Shown in pieces: positions 3,098 through 58,180 of a DNA stretch of 64,000 nucleotides. Origin of the DNA: Pseudovirgaria hyperparasitica. Taxonomy: Eukaryota. How positions within the stretch are numbered: the stretch's first letter is position 1; each line of letters starts with the position of its first letter. The stretch lies in NCBI GenBank assembly GCA_010093815.1, contig ML996573.1. One strand, 5' to 3'. Below the pieces are notes generated by a model that was not told where the DNA came from, made no database searches, and worked only from the letters and a program-made list of their open reading frames with translations. A program made the position numbers and the translations under genes.

Positions 3098-4334
3098 CTA
3101 CTCGTCCTTGAGCCACAAACCCAAAGCATCTCTCCGACTCTGGCTGGCAGGGTCCAGGTATGGTGGCTCACCGATGCCTACAGCACGTTGGCCGAAGCGG
3201 GGACCCTGTCCAGCAGTGTCCATTGTTGCGGTGTGGAATGTACTTCGGTTGTCCCAGAGAGCTGATATATGATTAGGGATATTTACGGTCAGATAGTGTG
3301 AAATGGGAGAACATACCGACATCGTTCGGCCCATTCCATCGGAACCTTACTTGCGCATCATGGTTCTCGAGAAGGTAGACTTCGAGAAACTCGTTCATGC
3401 GATCGCTTTCCAGCTTCGTTAATTCATTGAAACGAGGACGCTGCTCAGCGTGGCCGATACCATATAGCGCCTTCCAACCTGTTACTGGGTTGGTGCGAAC
3501 AGCGGGATGCGTAGCACCGAGCGTTGAACCAGCGTTAAGAGGGTGTCCACGAGGGTCGGTGTACATGTCGAAATTCCATACCTTCATCATTGGTTCAAAT
3601 CCGGGGTTGCCGAAGTGACATGTGAGACCCTCGAGAAACTTTTGCCATGGCTCGGAGAAACGGTCGTATAGTTCGTAAGCATTAGCCCACAGAGTGTCAC
3701 CGCCAGTAGGACCAAGTTTTTCCAAACGTAGGCATGAGTAGTCAGCTGGCACCTTCTCGAAGGCAATATCGCTGTGCCAGTATGCAGTTTTAGCCTTCTT
3801 CTGCAATAGTCTGTCCTTCTTGAGGGCATCATAGCGGTGCTTAAACAAATGCGCAGTCTCCTCGGAGCTAATGGTACTGATTTCCTCGTCCATACGGTTG
3901 TGATATTTTTTGTCATAATTGATGCTCGGATGGATGTATAGCTTAGATTCTTTGGGCTTGTTGACGAGTTCTCCCATACGCTGAACGAGTTCTTTCTGGG
4001 TCTCGTTGTCGGCATTGTCCTGATTACGGAAGAAGCATACGCCACGCTCAGAAACTAATGTTAGATTAGTAAAGGAGTGCGGGAATTTGTTTTGAAACGT
4101 ACCAGTAACAGCAAGGTCACGAATGAGGTCGTCAGAGTTTGGTGCTCGTAGCAGTTCCTTCAGGTTAATGTTGGTATACTCACGACCAATCTGTGGAGTG
4201 ACTTCGATGTAGCTGTATCCGTCAAGATTTCCTTGATACTTGGTCGGCTCGCGGATGAGTCCGCTCTTGCTCTTCTTGATTCCATTGATCCCTTCTGGGA
4301 CGAGGACCGGGGTCTCAATAGCCGACGGTGCCAT
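3098..4334 (-). CDS. TauD/TfdA-family Fe(II)/2-oxoglutarate dioxygenase (JLP1-like sulfonate dioxygenase); introns 4055-4102 and 3262-3316
   Basis: Motifs TPQIGREY, SERGVCFFRNQ, WHSDIAFE (HxD), GGDTLWA, HPAVRTNPVTGWK, VRFRW and, after splicing, ALWDNRSTFHTAT. MAPSA start at 4334; canonical splice sites. Confidence 0.92.
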
Positions 4335-6496
4335 GTTGTAGTGCCTTCCACTTTGTCTGATGTTGAAGTGTATCTGTTGAAGGTTGCGTTGTAAAAGTTG
4401 GGAATCGTAGTCTCTTCTGAAGTTTGACTTGAATTTGATGTTATAGCTTAAGCCAGATACAAGAGGGGACTGCCCAGCATTTAATATACATAGCTTGGCC
4501 GCCACTTTTGCTCCTATCGTATAAAAGAGAGCAACACCGAAGCCGAGCCCGCCAATTATCCTGGTATGGTAGAAACTAGACCTCGAGGATCCCAAAACTC
4601 TATTCATCCTTTGAATATCCCGAGGAGCTGATTGGTGATTATGTATTCCGTATTCTGATTGTGGAAAGACGCGAGGGGCTCCGAACGAGAATAACTGCGA
4701 GACACGAGGCCATGGCTGGTGCCGCAGAAGACCAGCCGTTACACCACATAGTGGATGGCTGAAGCTGGTATTAGCAACTGGAACGAGCTTCAGGTTGCAC
4801 TCATTGGTGGATGGATTAGATCTGATAAGATTTATGGGCTGATCGTCGTTATTCGCCGTTGTTCCACGTGTGATCTGCCTTGATTCCACGGAGATTTAAC
4901 GTCGTGAAGCTTGGGGGCCAACGGGTGCACCCGGAAGCAATGCCTCGGAAACTGAGCACTTTTCAAGTTCTTGATATTTTCGCACACTCCATTTCGCGGT
5001 CATTGATCCTTTTGCTGGGAATTCTAGTGTTGCATTGGTTGCGGTTCAGTGTCTGAACACGCCAAAGTACATCCAGCGCCGAGACAGACTTTGTGGGGCT
5101 CTAACGGTTGAATCGAAGCTTCGCCCTCTTTGACAGCTTGGCAGAACTTAGAGCGGAAAAGTCAAGAAAGCCCCGAGTCTCACCTGTTCGCGAGATACGA
5201 AAACAAGATATGATGACATTCAAACATGCTGTCGTCGGACATGTTCAGCTCAGTATGACTACAACATTTCTCCACATGCCCAATAATAGAATATGTTTGT
5301 CCCTCAAACAACAAAGTAGGTGCTTAGCCCCTACAACTTTGAGCTGGTTTTGTGTCTAAAACTGTCAGCGATGCTCTAAAGTCAGAACATTAATTTGCGC
5401 TCGGATGATTACTGCATCCTGCAACATTCCAAAGCCTATGATGAAACATCGCCTCTATGACTGTCTACATCATATCTCGATGGCCGTGAGTGTCAGAAGA
5501 GTCTATCCGTCTTTGTCAAGGTCCAAATCTCAAAAGCTTGGTGACATGAGTTAGAAGCCACTATACTAGTGATCCGGATTGGCCGTGTCGAGCCATACAA
5601 TTTGTTCGAAGGTCAGACGAGCAGTCGCAAGGCTGAGAGGTTGGTCCGCTAGCAACAAAAGAGTGCAATCATGGTTCATGTTGGAGAAGCTGGGGAAAGA
5701 CGAAAAGCTCCGTGGTATGTCGGCAGAGTGGGGCGTTGATGCCGTAGCGATTCCGGAGCTGTCTAACCACCTACGTCATAAATCCGTGCAATAATTTACA
5801 ACCGCCTTTGCGCGCATAGTCGGATGATCTAAATGTAGAATCAGTTCAAGCCAGGCGAATGTAATACTTCAACGATACCTAGCAGGCTAGCACGGAGACG
5901 CACAGAGTATGTCTAACAGATCATTTTCAATTTAGCAACAAATACAAGCAAGTAAACTGCCCGACTTCTCCTCCATTGAAATCAAGAATAAAGAGTGAAT
6001 GCTCCACCTACTGGCAGAGTGGTAAGATCTTCAACTGTGAGCATGTACTATGGACGATTGGGCATACAGATAGTGTAGTTGGCGACCACCGACAAGGAGA
6101 GATTCTGTCTGGCTTCAGACACCACTTTTGTCGGAGGTTGAATATTTCTTGCCAAGATGTTGACATGGTTTTGCATGCATATTGTCGATTTAGGGCTTCT
6201 TTCGAGCCTGTGTGGCCTGACAAGGCTTGATGTCAGCACTGTGTGGGCGGGCTCGCGCAATGCTGGACGATACCAGCGGATAATGATGTACGATCCAGTC
6301 TCCTGCCATGATCGCACGTGATGGAGATGACGCCTCTTAAGCTCGAGACCAGGTACGTCCAGTGAGCTTTCGAAGGCTGATTGTCGTTGACGCAACCGGT
6401 ATTTGAGCCAAAGCTCGGGCGACTAGGGTCGACACCACCATTTGTTACGGTTCCATGGATTCAGGAGAACATTGTGGATGCTTAACAACAACGCCA

Positions 6497-49700: not shown

Positions 49701-50404
49701 TGCGATCATCGCAGCAGCAACTGCGTCAAATCACTCGAATCCTGTTCGGCGTTTTAATCGTCTACGGTGACGCTAGTACCACCACTGCAGGTACCAGTCT
49801 GTCAACCCGCTTGTGACGCAACGCACCACCGCTGTCTCACCATTCTCTGGCGACCTCGTGTGGGCTTCCGCTTGATGACACCAGGTGCCTAAGATCCTCA
49901 TCTTCTCCATGTTGTGGTACAAAGAGTCAGTGCGAGCGGCTGCCACTTTCCGGTTGCACGGCGCTCCCATAAGCAAGCTCGAGGCTCGGATGTTAAGTCT
50001 TACATCAAGACCTTGAACACGTACGTCAGTTCATTCTTCTCGCCGACTGAGATCTGCGTAGATACCGTTTCCCTTCATCGGACTTGTACGACATAGCTTT
50101 GTTGTTACTAACATGGCGTTCGACTTCCTAGTTGGTACGTACGCGATGCAAGAAATGACCGGTCACCTGATGATAGACAATTCCACCCATCTCGTTTGTG
50201 ACACAGGTCTTCGAGTGTCTGTATAGTACTTTATCAATGACACACTTCAGCTGAACTGAAATTCGAGGAGTCACAAACCAGACATATACCATCGGGGGAT
50301 TCACTAAGCAAGATCAAATGCAGCAGTATTATTCACGAACATAGTATGAGCTTCCTAGGCACATTATCCTGAGCGCTGTGGGAATCGTTAGAATTGCTAC
50401 ACTA

Positions 50405-51874
50405 CTAGAAGAAACATATTGTACGAATCTCCACGCTTTCCCGCATCGGCGCATCCTTGGGACTCGTCGGATCAACGAACGCTGTATGCCCAACGAAACG
50501 CGCCCGTCCATCCATCGCCGAGTCGAATGTCTTCAGCAAGATGACCTGGTTGGGCGACATACGCGAAAAGTAGTACCATTTATGCTTGTTTGAGTAATTT
50601 AAAACGTAGTTCTCCCCCGTGCGTTCCCGATATCGCAGGTACAACTTGAAGAAATCTTTGTCTTCGCACGATTCCACGTCACACATGGCTAGCGGCCGCT
50701 CCTCGACGACACGATTGATCGGTTTCCACACGTTGATGAAGGCGACACGGCGAGACAGGAGGTCTTTGGACTCGTCGGGTAGCAACTGCTCGACCCGCTT
50801 TGGGCCAGATTCGGCGGTGTAGTCGCAGTGCACAAGCATGACAGGAGAGCGCTGAGACGTATTCTTCTCGTCGGTAAGCGCCTTTTGTGAGTTCCGCTCG
50901 GAGCGTATTGTGTGATCGAAAACAAGAACACGCGTTGCGCCCAAGGTTTTTTCAAGAAAGGAAACAACGTCCGGGTAGAATTCAGACCGCACAGCCTCAT
51001 CATTCTCCCAGTCGTTGGAGTAAGAGGTATTGAAAGAGTGTAAGGAAAACCCGTTTTTGTCCAGGTGGAACTTGTCCCATTGCTGCCAGCCGTCCGTCAC
51101 GGTGATTTCGCGCGCTAGGTCCCCTGGTTCGTGGATGTCTTTAGCCTTCTCGTCCTCATAAAAGTACAGCTCTGTGAGCCGGTCTACAGCTTTTGTGTAG
51201 TTGACAGTGGTACGTACAGATGGAGGGCCGTTAGGGAGCAGGGCCTTGTTCACTGCACCCTGTGTCTTCTTCCACGCCTCGAGCGGCTCAATGCCCTGCG
51301 TGTACCAGCGTTTCAGGTTCGGGTACTGGTCAAGAGGCAGACGTTGCGCAGCGTAGAGGTGCATGGGCGAGGCAACCGCAATGTCGGCAATGGTAGGCGT
51401 GTCGCCTACGAGGTACTTGGTCTTGGACAGCTGGGCCTCGAGGATGCCGGCGTATTTGCGGAACTTGGGCTCCTCGGCGTCAATCACGGCCTGATCCGGG
51501 GTTGCCTTGAGCAGAGGCTTGGCCACGAACTCGACAAGGTAGACGTAGCAGCTGGGAAACCACGCAGAGGCTTCCCAGAGCAGCCACTTGTTGACCTGGG
51601 CGCGCTGTCTGAGGTCTTTGGGATAATATGCATCGCTCCCGGCTGTGTCGGCGGCGTACTGGAGAATCGCATTGGACTCGGTGATGGTCAGGTCTCCATC
51701 CGTCGCCGCGGGCATAGTCTGCATGGGATTGATCTTCGTGAACCAGTCGCTCTTGTGCTCCCCCTTGAAGTAGTCGACATTGGTTGACTTGTACTCGATC
51801 TTCATCAGGTCGAGGCCAGCGAGCACCTTTCGGCTGTTGACCGTGCACGGATCCAGATACAACTCGATACCCAT
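50405..51874 (-). CDS. Fusion protein: N-terminal glutathione S-transferase plus C-terminal CmcJ/NvfI/AsaB-family Fe(II)/2OG oxygenase
   Basis: GST half: INP..TMP, ITESNAILQY, YLVGDTPTIADI, YPNLKRW. C-terminal half: FHLDKNGF, YP....L...LGATRV.VFDHTIR, VHCDYT, FINVWKPI, PLAMCD, HKWYY..M.P..V.LLK.FDS, HTAF.DP..RESVEIR. Confidence 0.92.
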   Translation of the reverse strand: MGIELYLDPCTVNSRKVLAGLDLMKIEYKSTNVDYFKGEHKSDWFTKINPMQTMPAATDGDLTITESNAILQYAADTAGSDAYYPKDLRQRAQVNKWLLWEASAWFPSCYVYLVEFVAKPLLKATPDQAVIDAEEPKFRKYAGILEAQLSKTKYLVGDTPTIADIAVASPMHLYAAQRLPLDQYPNLKRWYTQGIEPLEAWKKTQGAVNKALLPNGPPSVRTTVNYTKAVDRLTELYFYEDEKAKDIHEPGDLAREITVTDGWQQWDKFHLDKNGFSLHSFNTSYSNDWENDEAVRSEFYPDVVSFLEKTLGATRVLVFDHTIRSERNSQKALTDEKNTSQRSPVMLVHCDYTAESGPKRVEQLLPDESKDLLSRRVAFINVWKPINRVVEERPLAMCDVESCEDKDFFKLYLRYRERTGENYVLNYSNKHKWYYFSRMSPNQVILLKTFDSAMDGRARFVGHTAFVDPTSPKDAPMRESVEIRTICFF

Positions 51875-53456
51875 GTTGACAATCTTCAGACTATGGTTTC
51901 AGGTAGGGTAGGGTGAGGTATTATTATTAGAAGCCTTTGTGAATGATCTGCTCAAGGTTAAGCAACCACAAAAGAAGTATACCGAGACCCAAGCCCCTTC
52001 CCAACCCTCAAACCAGACCGCTGAGAGGATATAAATACACATTTCGGGAACAAGAGCTTCTACCCCGCCTTGTCAATCCCCCCCCCCTCCAAGACAATTC
52101 CTGTCGCCCGATTACGAAGCAGGACGGTTTCCACTTGTCGACATACAGTACACTCCGGAGCGATGTGGCGTATGATGGTTGGCAACACCTCGGGTGGACA
52201 CCTGCGCAGCCAAGACGCGTATGACCTCACATCCATCTATCTGTCTGCACAGCTTCCCATGCCCAGGGCATTTTAGAAGATCTGCGGGGTCTGTCCCCAT
52301 GACCAATTTGCACGAAGAAGACAATCACATCTACTTCCTTACTTCCTACACAGCTGCGCATAATCCAGTCCTGTCATATTACGAAGTATAATGCCCCCTC
52401 CCCATCCATGTAATGTCTAGACCCAACCTATATTCATGCCACAACCCCCACCACCCTCGAACAAAATCATGATAACCACCCCCAATGAGACATTACAGAT
52501 CTTGAAACATCAGCAGTCTTCTGACGGCATTACGTGCATGCTTCCCCGTCTGCCACGTCCAGTCATAGATGCAGATGTCTGTGCAAGCAAGCATCCATGT
52601 CCCGCATGGATCCCCTCCTCTCTTCCCGTTACACCGAGACTAGGCTGGATACGGACACGGACGCTGATATGATGTGATGTGATGTGATATGATACCTATG
52701 CTCGCCTGCTTGCCTTCCTGCCTGTCTTCCTGCCTGTGGTCCTGCCTTCTTGGAGCTTGGATCATGAGTACAAACCCAAACACCAGACCATACCCCGCGC
52801 AGAAATAAACATGATACATACGCACATGTACATACCGGTGTGCGTGCATGCATGCGTACGTATCCGCGTCCCGCCTCCACAGCATAGTAGAGAATAGCGA
52901 GATATGTGAGTGATGAACACGGGGTGTTTGTTGGGGGGGGGAAGAGGGTTAATAGATGGTTTTGAGAGGAAGCGTTTTCTATGTACAGAGTCCTAGGGGT
53001 CGTTTTAGTGGCTTCGGGTAGTGAAGTGAGCTTTCTTCAAGACGTGTGGGTATTGGGACAGCTGACGTTCGGCGCATGGAAGGTAAGGTAGGAAACGAGG
53101 TTGGGGGGGGGGCGTCTATTGGGTTTTTCTGGAAGCAAGCGGCATGGAAGAGGTCAGGTAGATAGGGGTGAGCAGCCTAGAGGATTGGTCGGGTTGTTTT
53201 CAGTCTGGTTCACTGTTGTCAGGAATTCAAGTAGTGCCTGATAACCACCTTCTTTGCAATCTGTCTTTTGATGCAGGTATCTTCAGCGGACGTATTTGAA
53301 TTTCAAGGCAAGATTTGATCGTCACTTAGACGGGGTTGGAGGTCTTTCATGCATCATGTACGTATACTACGGGTGGTATGGTATATAGGTCAATTTTCAA
53401 TTACAGTATGGCCTCGACAGCGTAGTAAGGGAGATTCCTCGACCGAAGTTGCTTCT

Positions 53457-55059
53457 CTACTCGATACAAGCTACCAGAATCTTTTCAAAGTCACCGCTTG
53501 TCTCGCTCTCGATGCGTTTCCGTAGCGTCTTTCCATACAGCTTTATGAATCGATCCTTCACAGCATGCATGTGCTGTCGGTTCCAATGCATACGGACAAC
53601 ACGGTTCATGAGCATGGTGTCCCTGGTGCCTAGACCCTTCATCGTTTCCTCAAGTTGAACTGCGTCCGATTCCACTCTGTCAACGGCACGGTTGACAAAC
53701 AACATTAGAGTGGCTTCCATGTGTCCGGAGAATTGCTTCTTGATCGCATCGACCAGCTTCTGTGAGAATTGATTTTGAAACTCATAGGCGATGGCGCGGA
53801 CTTGAGCGTCATTCTTGAGTAGCAAAATGTTGCAGAACTGTACTTGGTTCTTGATGCCAGTCATAGCATGTCGAAGCGCCTTTGCATCCTCGCGAGCTTG
53901 ATGCAGATCGACTGGAATAGAATCCTCGTTACGTCGCGCACTGATGATTATCATGAACATCTCTTCCGTAGCCGCCGACAAGTCGCTTCTAAGGTTGCTC
54001 TCCAAGGACTTTTTCTTTGTGCCCTGATAGTGAGCTTTGATAGCGTTCATGTCTGCATTCGAACGTCCCACCAGCACATCGTCAAGAGCACTCTCCTTTG
54101 TACCTATGCCTACCAAGGCATTGTCAAGAACCTCAACATCATGCGTTAGTGGACCTTGTACAATCGCAATGAGAGTTTCCAGGGACTTTGACAGTTTCCC
54201 GAAAACAGCATGAGCTTTGATATCTAAAATCAGATAATCGTGAGTCTGGGGATCGCCAGTCTTGGAATCGCAAGTCTTGGATAATTTTTCGGTTTCGAGG
54301 CGTTGTTTACATTCGGTGTCATAATCTGCCCGAAGCTTTGCGATTTGTAGTGGATCCAGTTTACTTAAGGTACCGATCAACGCCTTCTCGTCGATGCCGA
54401 TACTACCACGTAAGGCCTTGTAAATGATTGGTAGCTTAACTGTCATTTCATATGGTGCCATCTGCCCCTGAATGTATCCTAGCGTGGGAGGAGTTGGCGC
54501 TCCGGGAGGTACTCCCCATTGTCCCTGAGGGGCTCCGTGTTGTCCCTGTAGGCTGTTAAAAATCAACACGCGCGATGGGCTGATACCATCTTACCGGAGG
54601 AGGAACACCATAGTAATGGCCTGGTGGAGCCCCGTACGGCTGTTGCTGAGACGGAGGATACTGGCCTTGCCCCTGGGCAGGAGGTGCTTCGTACTGTGCC
54701 GGCGGAGCGTATCCTTGATGTTGGCTATAGCCTGGTTGCACGTATTGACCTTGGGGTGGGCCTGGTGCATATTGAGGAGCTGGCGCATATTGACCTTGAG
54801 GATGAACAGGCGGATATTGAGCCTGTGGAGGGACTTGCGTGTATTGAGGCTGTGGGGGATACTGCGAGTGTTGACCTGGCTGTTGATATCCTGGTTGTGT
54901 ATAAGGTTGCTGAACGTACGGCTGTTGATTGTACCCAGGCTGGGGTGGATCTGAATGTTCAATTGTCACTCACCAGAGGCAGTGGTATCAGAAGGACTTA
55001 CGGCTTTGGGATGGCGGATAACCTGGATATCCGCCTGGTGGCGGATACTGATGAGACAT
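53457..55059 (-). CDS. Fungal annexin with a P/Q/Y/G-rich N-terminus; introns 54951-55001 and 54546-54594
   Basis: Annexin repeats GIGTKE..L.GRSNAD, FSGHME, MKGLGT..RVVRMHW, ETSGDFEK; exons join in frame. Confidence 0.9.
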
Positions 55060-56020
55060 AGGTCGTCTGAATGGTAGTATAGAATGATGTTGAAATTACG
55101 ACCGTTATGTGTTAGCAGGCGGATTGAGGGAATAATGTGTCTGGAAGAAGGCTGAGATCATGGACAGTTGCTTAAAGCTGAGTGAGCCATTGTACGAGAA
55201 ACAAGATGGACTGCAAGTGCTTATAGTGGGGGCGGCTGTGTTACTGCCCCGCATGGATGGATCGCACCCTTAACTTGTCGACTCGTCAACTGTGGCGGTG
55301 AAGTGCACTGCAATAGGCTGGTCAATCGGATGGCATGATTAGCTCGAAAGGCCTAGTGTAAGTGCCAGTTGGCATAATCTGCTCTGTAAACTGGTGATGT
55401 TCGTATGAGGAGATCAGTAGAACAGACGTCATACTCCACAACTACAGTCAGAGCCCATTCGATGCGACAGTATCAAAGGGCATATTTTCAAGGGCGAACG
55501 AATGAATCCAGTGCCCTAGTCCATCCAATAGCCGGTAGACAGCTTCACAGTACAAGTCTTGGACAGTAAGTTTCCATTCGGGGACGACCTTGAGCAAACG
55601 TTGTGAATATTCAAGGCTGTGAGGCTGTAGTCCCGCGTATTACCTGCGCCACCTGCGCCACTTCCACCTATCTCACCCACCATAACTACCATCACAACCA
55701 ATGAGACGTCCAGCTTGAATTACCGCCATACTGTATGCACGCCAAGGCATAGAACAAGCGCCGTCCCTGACCGTCTCTCTCAGCACGTCAGTCGAAGCTT
55801 GAAAAGATACTTGGACATCTGGTGGGAGTTCCTGCTCTCTATGTGCAAATCTCAATCCTTACGTTGTGGTCTTTGCGGTTTGGAGCCTCATACCGCGACA
55901 TTGTCACGATCTTCGGATAGCTTCATGTTGAACTACATGCCTAGCGCAGCCCTCGAGCAATGTGGATAATATTCCAAGCATACATCGCTACCACCGTGCT
56001 TTAATCAACTTCGGCTCATA

Positions 56021-58180
56021 ATGGAGGAATTCCCACACGATCCAACCCTTTGCAATGAGGAGGAGTCGGTGCTCACATTTCACAGCGACGACAGGCTCTG
56101 TATTTACTGTTCGAAAGCCATTGAGGGAATAATCGAGCCAAATGAGGAGCCCTGGGAAATTACCATGGGTGCCTTCGATCAACTAAGGCATCCGAACCGC
56201 AGGGCCGCCGGCCCAGCAATAGGGTATCTTCACATACATCACGATGGTACTGTGCGTACCTTGCGGCACGAGAGGCATAAATGCCCAATGTGCTTTGTTG
56301 TGGAGGGATACTTGTCGCTTAAGATTAAGATGGGAGGACCCCAGTGGTCTTTAATAAATGATGGACATTATCGTATCGTCTTTCAACAACACCTAAACAA
56401 GTTGGAAATCGCCCTTGAAATCAGAATCGACGCGCCCCCGCCCCCGAGCGATCGCATGACTGATTGGAGATTTAAAACATTCATTTACGACTTATATGTG
56501 CTGGAAGAACCCAACGACCCTTTTTGGGAATCCGACGGAGGGTTTCAAATTCGTCCTAAGAACGTGGACCGGCCTTGTTTTCACACAAGATTTAATACCC
56601 ATCCTAGTTCCGATGCAACGTTCAACGAAGTCAAGGTCTGGCTCCAGCAATGCAAAGACCAGAAGCTCCATCCCCGTTGTCAATGGAAAATGCAGGAGCT
56701 TCCAAAACGTATCATTTATCTTGGCATAGAAACGCCGCCCGAATGGGTATATCTACATGACGGATGCGGCAGAATCGAAGAATATGTGACATTAAGCTAT
56801 TCCTGGGGCTCATCACCGCCATTCCGTACCACTTGCGATAACATAACAAGTCATTTCAATGGTATAGCAACCTCGACTCTTCCAAAGACGCTGAAAGACG
56901 CAGTTCTTATCGCATCCCGTTTAGGCTTTCGCTATATATGGATAGATGCTCTATGTATTGTTCAAGACGATAAAGACGACTGGGCTGAGCATGGTCCTGT
57001 CATGGCCCAAATCTACAGCAACTCCGCACTCACAATATCGGCGACGGGTTCCGCAGACTGTGAAAGCGGCATATTCACTGATCTAATGAAATATGGCACA
57101 GAAATCGGATCATTCCGCCATAGGTCAGATGTAAAATACCGTCGCTCGGTGTTCTTCGACCAACGAAGGGACTTCGGAGGGCCCGCTGGTCATCTTTTCA
57201 CGCGAGGCTGGACATTCCAAGAACACCTCGTCTCACCTAGAGTCTTACATTACACAGGCTCTGGGGTAACGTGGGAATGCTTCAGCATCTTCCATCGGCA
57301 AGGCAGCCCCGAGAACCTGTTCCGAGTCAATACTTCAACAGAGTCAGAGTGGGCAACGCAAAATGCCTTATACAAGAGGATTGCCGAGCCACAATCGCAG
57401 CATACATTCGAGAACTACGTGAACAGAATGGAAGCATATCACAAATGGCATAAGTGGGTTGTCGATTTCTCCTCACGCGATCTCACGCATGTGAATGATA
57501 AGCTACCTGCAATGGCCGGAATCGCAGCCCATTTCTCTACTAATATGCAGAGCACTTACCTTGCTGGTCTGTGGAAGGAAAACTTCGTAAGTGATCTGCT
57601 CTGGGAACGCAGGTCGCTACAGCTACAACACCATACCGGGATTGCACCGTCTTGGAGCTGGGCATCGGTCTCTGGGTGGCTAGACTATCATTTTGACAGC
57701 TTTGAATATGTACTGACAGGGTCGCGGTACGACATAGCGATTTCGAGCGTAGATGTACAAGAATCTGTTACCGGGTCGTTTGGGCGCGTAACCGACGCAC
57801 GAATCATAACACATGGCTGGCTCCAGGAGGTAAAGCTGGTCCGGCTCACTTTCCTTCGTAAGCGCAATGAACATAGCGCTGAGCACGGCTTCGTGGAACG
57901 TACGGACGTCGCGTGCAAATTGGACCACCTTGAGGATGTCAGTATGGAGCCCATATGGTGTTGGGCATTGCGAATAGGATTGTTTGTTCCAACGGGTCTA
58001 CGCTCCCCTAACGATGCTCGCATTGCAATGCTGCTCCTTGACAGAGTCGGTCCGCCGCAGGACAACACATTTAAAAGAATTGGGTTAGCATATACCGTGT
58101 CCTGGTATGATGACAGAGGCCCTCCTCTACCGGAGGACATTTGTGTTTCAGGATCCTGGCAGAAAATGGTGTTGATCTGA
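56021..58180 (+). CDS. HET-domain (heterokaryon incompatibility, TOL/HET-6-like) protein, intronless
   Basis: HET motifs YVTLSYSWG, LPKTLKDA..LGFRYIWIDALCIVQDD..DW..MAQIYSNS.LTISA, LFTRGWTFQE; downstream DKLPAMAGIA, YLAGLW, APSWSWAS, FKRIG. Confidence 0.93.
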   Translation: MEEFPHDPTLCNEEESVLTFHSDDRLCIYCSKAIEGIIEPNEEPWEITMGAFDQLRHPNRRAAGPAIGYLHIHHDGTVRTLRHERHKCPMCFVVEGYLSLKIKMGGPQWSLINDGHYRIVFQQHLNKLEIALEIRIDAPPPPSDRMTDWRFKTFIYDLYVLEEPNDPFWESDGGFQIRPKNVDRPCFHTRFNTHPSSDATFNEVKVWLQQCKDQKLHPRCQWKMQELPKRIIYLGIETPPEWVYLHDGCGRIEEYVTLSYSWGSSPPFRTTCDNITSHFNGIATSTLPKTLKDAVLIASRLGFRYIWIDALCIVQDDKDDWAEHGPVMAQIYSNSALTISATGSADCESGIFTDLMKYGTEIGSFRHRSDVKYRRSVFFDQRRDFGGPAGHLFTRGWTFQEHLVSPRVLHYTGSGVTWECFSIFHRQGSPENLFRVNTSTESEWATQNALYKRIAEPQSQHTFENYVNRMEAYHKWHKWVVDFSSRDLTHVNDKLPAMAGIAAHFSTNMQSTYLAGLWKENFVSDLLWERRSLQLQHHTGIAPSWSWASVSGWLDYHFDSFEYVLTGSRYDIAISSVDVQESVTGSFGRVTDARIITHGWLQEVKLVRLTFLRKRNEHSAEHGFVERTDVACKLDHLEDVSMEPIWCWALRIGLFVPTGLRSPNDARIAMLLLDRVGPPQDNTFKRIGLAYTVSWYDDRGPPLPEDICVSGSWQKMVLI

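Follow-up and report, generated by a model that had tools for sequence, protein, structure and literature searches.

The question raised by this locus is how a glutathione S-transferase (GST) and an iron-dependent oxygenase came to be joined in one fungal protein, and what such a union may do. The locus lies in a stretch of 64,000 nucleotides (nt) from Pseudovirgaria hyperparasitica (GenBank assembly GCA_010093815.1, contig ML996573.1), which is called the window below and is meant at its full length. An earlier note on this stretch had described an uninterrupted open reading frame (ORF) of 489 amino acids (aa) at 50405-51874, and this ORF was recovered in our analysis, with the minus strand now added. 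The product is a two-domain enzyme in which a phi/theta-like GST is fused to a complete CmcJ/NvfI-type oxygenase dependent on Fe(II) and 2-oxoglutarate (2OG). On balance, it is probable that the gene descends from a transferred bacterial gene pair that was fused, that its message is spliced at the junction, and that its two domains work one after the other. What appears to be new is the pairing as a conserved module, its likely transfer and fusion, and the spliceable seam; the sequences were already public and the domain families known. The features of the gene are as follows.

50405-51874, minus strand: GST-oxygenase fusion ORF (P0001), 489 codons plus stop, uninterrupted
51233-51874, minus strand: GST half, residues 1-214 (Pfam GST_N and GST_C, phi/theta matches in the PDB, fold match to GSTF7)
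51842-51844, minus strand: codon of Thr11 (alignments with fungal, bacterial and phi-class GSTs)
51218-51241, minus strand: linker LLPNGPPS, residues 212-219, where homologues differ in length and sequence
51124-51217, minus strand: 94-nt GT..AG segment (GTACGT...CCAG), residues 220-251 if kept (contig paths)
51115-51117, minus strand: TAG met after the 94-nt skip; the spliced message would encode residues 1-219 plus Gly-Thr, 221 aa
50408-51217, minus strand: CmcJ/NvfI-type Fe(II)/2OG oxygenase half, residues 220-489 (NF041278; NvfI and CTB9 by sequence and fold)
50822-50830, minus strand: codons of H349-C350-D351, the HxD metal ligands (alignments with NvfI and of 113 homologues)
50486-50488, minus strand: codon of H463, the distal His of the triad (same two alignments)
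50441-50443, minus strand: codon of R478 in RESVEIR, the presumed 2OG-binding Arg (invariant in the fungal and bacterial alignments)

The two domains and their fungal family

The fusion protein begins with MGIELYLDP, and an in-frame stop lies 24 nt 5' of its ATG. Contigs from two public runs, possibly of the very sample behind the window assembly, agree letter for letter with positions 50300-52000, so no stop or assembly error was seen at the junction, where the earlier note had allowed for one. An AlphaFold2 model of the fusion, with 113 homologues as input, gave a mean predicted local distance difference test score (pLDDT) of 92.0 and a predicted template-modelling score (pTM) of 0.67, with the pLDDT falling to 76 in the linker residues 211-220. 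A fold search with this model found no PDB chain that covers both halves.

The claim that residues 1-214 form a complete GST was confirmed by Pfam matches to GST_N (residues 13-75, 47.7 bits against a cut-off of 20.9) and GST_C (residues 125-192, 49.2 bits against 20.7), and by superposition of the model on poplar GSTF7 (5f06), with a template-modelling (TM) score of 0.87 over 214 columns. Across phi GSTs the fold TM scores were 0.87-0.90, and the thioredoxin-like N domain and all-helical C domain of the cytosolic GST superfamily are both present. Sequence matches to plant phi-class and human theta-1 structures had E values of 1e-25 to 1e-21. Membership of a GST class usually means more than about 40% identity within the class. 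The best phi and theta structures are only 25-31% identical to the GST half, which is below that level and places it outside both classes; in the GST tree it belongs to a bacterial-fungal family of its own.

The motif of this family is DP[CI]T[VI]N[SC]RK, and the GST positions invariant in the 113 fused homologues are D8, P9, T11, N13, K16, P55 and S67. The N-terminal motif is collinear with that of the plant phi GSTs (GSTF7, maize GST I and III) and human theta-1, from which the family differs, apart from its low identity, by having Thr11 in place of a serine. At the position of Thr11, poplar GSTF7, maize GST III and outgroup bacterial GSTs have a serine, which we take to be the catalytic residue of those enzymes; Thr11 itself is invariant in the aligned 113 fungal and 40 bacterial sequences. 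The usual catalytic Ser, Tyr or Cys near the N-terminus was thus replaced by Thr11, whose hydroxyl might substitute for that of serine. Cys10 was rejected as a catalytic cysteine; it is Ile in the Burkholderiales-type members, so one bacterial branch lacks it and it is not a conserved catalytic Cys. In the same fungal and bacterial sequences P55, E66 and S67 are invariant or nearly so. P55 is presumably the cis-Pro before strand 3, and E66-S67 presumably the glutathione-site residues at the start of helix 3; by residue conservation, the glutathione site (cis-Pro, Glu-Ser) is therefore retained.

The C-terminal half had been assigned to the CmcJ/AsaB family with its HxD..H triad and RESVEIR arginine intact, and both points stood. 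NCBIfam model NF041278 (CmcJ_NvfI_EfuI) matched residues 222-489 over its whole length (positions 2-263 of 263; 257.7 bits against a cut-off of 80, E 1.3e-76), and residues 259-488 matched the PDB sequences of NvfI and CTB9 at E values of about 1e-25. In the alignment with NvfI, VHCDYT faces VHCDHT, GHTAF faces AHCAF and RESVEIR faces RESIDVR, which supplies the iron triad and the presumed 2OG-binding Arg; H349, D351, H463, R478 and R484 are invariant in the 113 fused homologues. The role of R478 in 2OG binding is one that we assume to carry over from the oxygenase family. The C-half superimposed on NvfI with a TM score of 0.88 by target over 280 columns and on CTB9 with 0.80 by target, and Foldseek gave an E value of 1e-25 and root-mean-square deviations of 2.3-3.6 Å for the two, in keeping with a double-stranded beta-helix.

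NvfI (the novofumigatonin endoperoxidase, PDB 7de2/7emz) and CTB9 (cercosporin, PDB 7eus) thus share with the window enzyme the family, the triad, the RESxxxR motif and the fold (TM 0.77-0.88 by target), but their sequence identity to it is just 23-26%. Both are stand-alone proteins encoded in metabolite clusters, whereas the window enzyme is fused to a GST and lies outside such a cluster. Its oxygenase clade is separate from that of NvfI and CTB9 and is common to proteobacterial operon genes.

A search of 5.8 billion proteins returned 1348 matches, and the architecture was read in the best 120. All of these carry the GST families plus PF27522, are 62-74% identical to the query and, in 117 cases, cover 100% of it. 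The named sources among these 120 are 27 ascomycete species, all Pezizomycotina, spread over the Dothideomycetes, Eurotiomycetes (Chaetothyriales), Lecanoromycetes, Leotiomycetes and Sordariomycetes; the class placement was checked for three lineages and is assumed from general knowledge for the remaining sources. The 120 records are labelled 'hypothetical protein' or 'glutathione S-transferase'. The same architecture is shared by the 119 best relatives in the database. The GST-oxygenase fusion is therefore not rare but a widespread, already deposited and uncharacterised family in at least five classes, and the window gene is a Pleosporales member of this family conserved across the Pezizomycotina. 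In open-access full text, no paper on the fusion architecture or on the bacterial pair was found and six locus tags of orthologues had no match, in line with the earlier note, whose author knew of no characterised enzyme of such architecture. In Stachybotrys, protein P0134 joins an amino-acid permease to the oxygenase domain and may be a merged gene model.

Bacterial gene pairs and the origin of the fusion

A search with the oxygenase half alone returned 5174 relatives, among which the whole fused family makes up one representative at 50% identity. The next relatives are stand-alone proteins of about 270-290 aa with at most 46% identity, one of them from Cupriavidus necator. When bacterial genomes were scanned with the single protein P0127, no confirmed relative was found; a pattern built on an alignment of eight oxygenase sequences yielded 588 confirmed loci, of which 80 were kept. 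In 75 of the 80, a GST that is 48-61% identical to the fungal N-half stands directly upstream on the same strand as a separate ORF, and in none of these 75 are the two in one ORF. Three of the other five loci are cut at a contig edge; two loci labelled as gammaproteobacterial (L042 and L064) have the oxygenase with no GST upstream.

For the reverse search a GST of the Acetobacteraceae was used as the query, whose identity to the fungal N-half is 62%; this gave 12 close loci, 11 of them with an oxygenase directly downstream that is 48-59% identical to the fungal C-half. The twelfth, an alphaproteobacterial locus (L092), has a luciferase-like monooxygenase ORF downstream of its GST instead. Combining both searches, the GST stands directly upstream of the oxygenase in 86 of 89 informative loci, with a GST identity of 48-64%. 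As a control, loci with other GSTs had the oxygenase within 3 kb in 0 of 44 cases. The pairing is specific to this bacterial-fungal GST family. The paired genes encode a GST of 211-220 aa and an oxygenase of 269-301 aa, spaced by -4 to 101 nt.

The pair is accompanied by further genes in bacteria. Of 92 loci, 62 have a divergently transcribed gene for a LysR-family regulator immediately before the GST, and these 62 all belong to the Burkholderiales type. In nine of the ten Acetobacteraceae-like loci that have the oxygenase and room downstream, the oxygenase is followed by a classical short-chain dehydrogenase/reductase (SDR). A metagenome scan gave 80 contigs, 48 of the bacterial two-ORF type and 32 of the fungal type, and an SDR orthologue is present in 34 of the 48 bacterial-type contigs; in three of these (L182, L197 and L215) it sits between the GST and the oxygenase. 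In NCBIfam the SDR has generic, mostly below-cut-off matches of the KduD/gluconate-5-dehydrogenase type. The description of the locus as a candidate 'one-gene system' is not supported, as a conserved SDR or a LysR regulator belongs to the module in the bacterial relatives. Either gene offers a direct experimental handle.

Proteobacterial modules such as those of Acidisphaera rubrifaciens (L086), Pseudaquabacterium inlustre (L057) and Hydrogenophaga sp. (L020) are orthologous to both halves of the fungal protein and match it in gene order, GST before oxygenase, and in the invariant residues. They differ in being two ORFs with a LysR or SDR gene, neither of which was seen beside the fungal gene. 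No described function for these GST-oxygenase(-SDR) modules was found in open-access full text. A complex prediction for the Acidisphaera GST and oxygenase scored 0.00, which is no evidence either way.

Phylogenetic trees were computed with 25 of the 113 fungal sequences, 15 of the 70 usable Burkholderiales-type pairs and 8-12 Acetobacteraceae-like loci. In the maximum-likelihood (ML) tree of the oxygenase, the bacterial pairs and fungi form one group (support 100/100), the fungi are a clade (100/100), and the fungi join the Acetobacteraceae-like sequences (100/98), whereas the Burkholderiales type branches off outside this group. As the root of the GST tree, 11 bacterial GSTs of other families and 2 GST domains from algae were used; this tree recovered the family (100/99) and the fungi (100/99), which were nested among alphaproteobacterial-like sequences at 83-88 bootstrap. 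The concatenated tree again joined the fungi to the Acetobacteraceae-like pair (100/99).

Relatives of the oxygenase occur in at least 588 bacterial loci, and the named fungal sources among the best 120 of the 1348 matches are confined to the Pezizomycotina. Transfer from bacteria to fungi is favoured because of the trees, this wide bacterial and narrow fungal distribution, and the operon structure. Very probably, a fungal ancestor took up the bacterial pair from near the Acetobacteraceae-like lineage, and the two genes then merged into one. The origin from a bacterial gene pair, which had been suggested before, is supported by the adjacent genes of 48-64% identity and by the agreement between the trees of both halves. 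Yeasts have reportedly taken up a bacterial siderophore operon whose genes stayed separate. The present case is alike in that a bacterial multi-gene unit works in a fungus, but here two genes seem to have been merged, and the family is a clean candidate for how a bacterial operon is made to work in a eukaryote.

Independent fusions and the possible chemistry

A GST joined to an oxygenase of the same broad family was also found in algae and protists. The order is GST-oxygenase in a 586-aa protein of Prymnesium parvum (P0194, KAL1520033.1) and oxygenase-GST in P0261 (an MMETSP transcript) and P0158; P0220 is a partial GST-oxygenase, and in P0199 a tautomerase replaces the GST. Unlike the window fusion, these proteins belong to another oxygenase clade (100/100), carry GST domains of a very different lineage (branch length 2.9) and come in both domain orders. 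The separate clade, the different GST lineage, the two orders and the tautomerase variant together indicate independent fusion events. That fusion occurred separately and in either order speaks strongly for a joint action of the two activities, and it supports the functional coupling that had been proposed from the window gene. The recurrence of the pair as an operon, as a fungal fusion and as algal fusions in two orders suggests that a pathway which needs both glutathione and 2OG has been conserved.

It is possible, although we would not call it probable, that both domains act on one specific small metabolite outside secondary-metabolite clusters, with the oxygenase first and the GST last. 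The oxygenase would hydroxylate or desaturate the metabolite; in bacteria, the adjacent SDR would then take the alcohol to a carbonyl; and the GST domain would put glutathione to the activated product by addition, substitution or isomerisation. The tautomerase fusion P0199 hints that the partner may isomerise the oxygenase product instead of conjugating it. In the beta-etherase pathway of Sphingobium, which also includes LigG, the SDR LigD makes a ketone and the GSTs LigE and LigF attack the neighbouring carbon with glutathione. That pathway may serve as a model for a module of GST, SDR and hydroxylase, as an analogy only; unlike the bacterial module, it has no 2OG oxygenase.

The opposite order of reactions is unlikely, although it has to be taken seriously. 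The GST would displace a leaving group to form a glutathionyl thioether and the oxygenase would hydroxylate the carbon beside the sulfur; the resulting hemithioacetal would collapse, freeing an aldehyde and glutathione, by a logic like that of TauD and AtsK. This order would suit the position of the GST, which comes first in 86 of 86 bacterial pairs and is N-terminal in the fungal fusion. It would also suit the GST-site helix motifs, whose strong conservation between bacteria and fungi speaks for a single specific substrate. The algal fusions, however, occur in both domain orders, so gene order says little on reaction order. We know of no CmcJ/NvfI family member that acts on thioethers, which also speaks against this scheme, and an alcohol intermediate would agree better with the conserved SDR than would the release of an aldehyde.

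A second serious alternative, though distinctly unlikely, is that the GST half is non-catalytic and that the oxygenase does all the chemistry, with the GST as its glutathione sensor, as a ligand-binding (ligandin) module or as a scaffold for dimerisation. The threonine that replaces the active-site serine in all 113 fungal and 40 bacterial sequences would be expected of such a protein. GSTs are dimers, and a GST-only isoform, for which evidence is given below, could titrate dimer partners. In contrast, Pro55, Glu66-Ser67 and Lys/His at 40-41, which we take to be glutathione-site positions, are invariant from bacteria to fungi, and threonine keeps the hydroxyl group. The use of another GST lineage by the algae likewise argues for GST chemistry over a particular scaffold. 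Oxidation followed by GST action remains the preferred scheme. The earlier note had suggested oxidative activation or dealkylation with subsequent glutathione capture, for detoxification or organosulfur salvage; such a role is conceivable, but no result of this analysis speaks for organosulfur salvage in particular.

Probable splicing at the junction and the surroundings of the gene

The gene had been described as intronless, and this part of the description calls for amendment. The contigs of two runs (X1 and X2), which are of one sample whose kind is not on record and which were available as contigs and not as reads, fork between 51094 and 51246, where one path keeps 94 nt and the other skips them. 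The skip joins 51122 to 51217 (cut +1), and its ends are GT..AG on the gene's strand. Both runs hold a 153-nt unitig that retains the segment and a 59-nt unitig that skips it. The segment starts with GTACGT, which encodes Val220-Arg221, the first residues of the oxygenase, and ends with GAACCAG; a CTAA-type branch-like motif lies 20 nt upstream of the closing CAG. Removal of the segment shifts the frame and leads to a TAG two codons on, giving a product of 221 aa, the size of a bacterial GST. The gene would therefore yield both a 221-aa GST and the 489-aa fusion. An oxygenase-only product is impossible from the window gene; there is no Met between residues 172 and 345.

The depths of the two contig paths were 37.1 versus 62.6 in one run and 80.7 versus 176.6 in the other, values that are not a measure of RNA. 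The contigs are short and their depth is uneven along the gene (31.7 versus 65.2, and 173.5 versus 121.1), which we infer to fit RNA better than haploid DNA. We consider it likely that the 94-nt skip reflects RNA splicing of part of the messages. As the contigs also hold the form that lacks the 94 nt, the gene probably does contain an intron, even though its ORF can be read without a break.

The junctions of relatives were read in the fungal-type contigs of the metagenome scan, and the lineages were found to solve the junction differently. Twenty of the 32 contigs are continuous through the junction. Five (L151, L160, L162, L164 and L181) have a junction intron that holds a stop or shifts the frame. 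In L162 this is a 62-nt intron, GTACGG...CGCAG, after ALLP-G; if it is left in place, the frame closes after 218 aa with ALLPGTVA-stop. With the junction intron taken out in silico, L160 and L162 each read as a single frame of about 492 aa. The junction region is missing and the frame is shifted in four contigs that are short and transcript-like: L171 and L178 miss about residues 216/223-251 and have tails ending ATRQ-stop, and L179 and L208, from one organism, miss residues 216-239. Two of the 32 contigs are cut. In the last, a transcript-like contig of the fungal clade nearest to the Conoideocrella reference (L176, positions 690-760), the GST frame and the oxygenase frame share the letters ATGA, an overlap like that of translationally coupled genes in bacteria; this may be a fungal state without fusion, or the effect of a single wrongly sequenced nucleotide.

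The 94-nt GTACGT...CCAG element itself is also present in two genomic contigs (L138 and L139) whose protein is 66% identical to that of the window. In Paraphaeosphaeria minitans, the 236-aa model P0358 and the fused P0009 (501 aa) are identical as far as the same Val codon, from which P0358 continues as VTPR-stop. All evidence for skips of the window type falls in one clade (support 98) together with Pleosporales references. Other introns were seen in the GST half, near residues 27, 65, 96 and 171, in L144/L145, L141, L148 and L208, and the varied introns of the fungal relatives mean that the family is not generally intron-free.

Many deposited fungal 'GSTs' of 212-251 aa end at the junction, with tails such as ALLPGTVA, ALLPGGGV and ...TRQ, and the tails of P0367 and of P0299/P0302 are those read in L162 and L151. 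By sequence, the 212-251-aa 'GSTs' that were checked, P0358 among them, appear to be first exons or spliced isoforms of the fusion. As these models stop at the junction, GST inventories misclassify the family. An example is Exophiala pisciphila 'Ure2p9', which is the 212-aa record P0368 ending at the junction and is linked to its paper by the database name. In the part of that paper covered here (PMC4401685), 24 GSTs are called full-length, the classes include Ure2p-like, under which the homologue of the window GST is filed, and the oxygenase half is not mentioned.

A rather doubtful extension is that the bacterial two-gene operon became one fungal gene through a spliceable seam, at which splicing sets the ratio of free GST to fusion. 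Some lineages would have kept the old GST stop and spacer in a junction intron (ALLPG, then GTACGG...TGA...CAG, in L160 and L162), so that the unspliced message would give a GST of bacterial length and the spliced message the fusion. In the Pleosporales, the seam would have become coding, and a frame-shifting 94-nt exitron would re-create the GST-only product. Splicing at the former spacer would in this way be the eukaryotic substitute for two cistrons. The term exitron stands for a GT..AG segment inside a coding exon that alters the product when it is removed; unlike known exitrons, the present one has its splice site exactly on the seam of two formerly separate bacterial genes, and its use restores a GST of bacterial length. 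The GST-only isoform may tune the balance between transferase and oxygenase activity, it may form dimers with the fusion through the GST domain, or it may be a mere mark of unproductive splicing. If the spliceable seam is real, the module would define a glutathione- and 2OG-dependent pathway common to proteobacteria, ascomycetes and, by convergence, algae.

It is quite improbable that the 94-nt skip is a DNA deletion allele, the result of a mixed sample or an artefact of the assembly graph, with the 489-aa protein as the sole product. X1 and X2 are one sample without a recorded kind, and contigs show neither strand nor level, all of which leaves room for such an explanation. It does not account for the GTACGT start, the CAG end and the CTAA-type motif on the gene's strand, or for short contigs of uneven depth, which are unlike haploid DNA. 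Three other organisms have the same gap and frame shift (L171, L178 and L179/L208), and the independent annotation P0358 uses the same donor.

Several observations weigh against the reading of a transferred, fused and junction-spliced pair whose domains act in succession. Approximately unbiased (AU) tests of a tree with all bacteria in one clade gave a p value of 0.0496 with the oxygenase, of 0.219 with the GST and of 0.08 with the two concatenated, and the group tested was named after the tree had been seen. As these tests are borderline, the nesting of the fungi in bacteria is favoured and not proven; as they are not decisive, the direction of transfer rests on the operon structure, the distribution and the topology of the ML trees. 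Fungal classes are not cleanly reflected in the gene tree: Lithohypha and Neophaeococcomyces (Chaetothyriales) group with the Pleosporales while Exophiala and Cladophialophora fall elsewhere, and the Sordariomycete Conoideocrella is placed among Dothideomycete references. Old paralogy, transfer from fungus to fungus or weak resolution could each explain this. The pTM of the model gives no confident packing between the two domains, GST catalysis is unproven because Thr11 stands for the usual Ser, and the chemistry is inferred from family membership and gene neighbourhood. The SDR orthologue is absent from the window and from the short flanks of the 32 fungal-type contigs. The skip is known from the contigs of one sample, from which no RNA levels can be derived, and the donor GTACGT is not kept in all relatives with a continuous junction (for example L137, L140 and L143).

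The surroundings were examined by a domain scan of 28 large ORFs across the window, which identified the families UPF1, Brix, phospholipase C (PLC), HAD hydrolase, TauD, DUF676, annexin, HET, GH16 and IDO. No polyketide synthase (PKS), nonribosomal peptide synthetase (NRPS), terpene synthase or obvious transporter was found among these 28 ORFs, as the earlier note had said of PKS, NRPS and transporter genes, and the gene is therefore considered to lie outside a biosynthetic cluster. It is very improbable that the fusion is a tailoring enzyme of a secondary-metabolite pathway encoded elsewhere, in the manner of NvfI, CTB9, AsaB or GA4 desaturase. The nearest solved structures are indeed NvfI and CTB9, and GSTs occur in some fungal clusters, GliG of gliotoxin being one. 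Such a role is opposed by the neighbours (annexin, HET, GH16, IDO, UPF1, Brix and PLC, with none of the cluster genes sought), by the 62-74% identity across at least five fungal classes, which is unusually high for cluster tailoring, and by the bacterial homologues, which form small modules together with a LysR or SDR gene while the rest of their neighbourhood varies. Scarcely credible is the view that the fusion is a reading artefact, with a separate GST, a separately translated oxygenase and no 489-aa protein, since the stop-containing junction introns of some relatives, the 212-251-aa GST-only models in databases and the ATGA overlap in L176, which might suggest it, are set against the lack of a Met between residues 172 and 345 at which the oxygenase could start, the conserved oxygenase residues in the skipped segment (E235 and Y237 are invariant), the match of that segment to the N-terminus of the bacterial enzyme, the frame of about 492 aa restored by intron removal in L160 and L162, and the continuous junctions of 20 of the 32 fungal-type contigs.

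The next gene upstream of the fusion encodes an annexin with three annexin repeats (53457-54590, minus strand), and an ORF of 736 codons with a HET (heterokaryon incompatibility) domain is found at 55970-58180 on the plus strand. A 540-codon frame at 3273-4895 on the minus strand encodes a 2OG dioxygenase of the TauD/TfdA family at residues 280-529 (E 1.5e-24); it has a long N-terminal extension with no Pfam match and is unrelated to the fusion.

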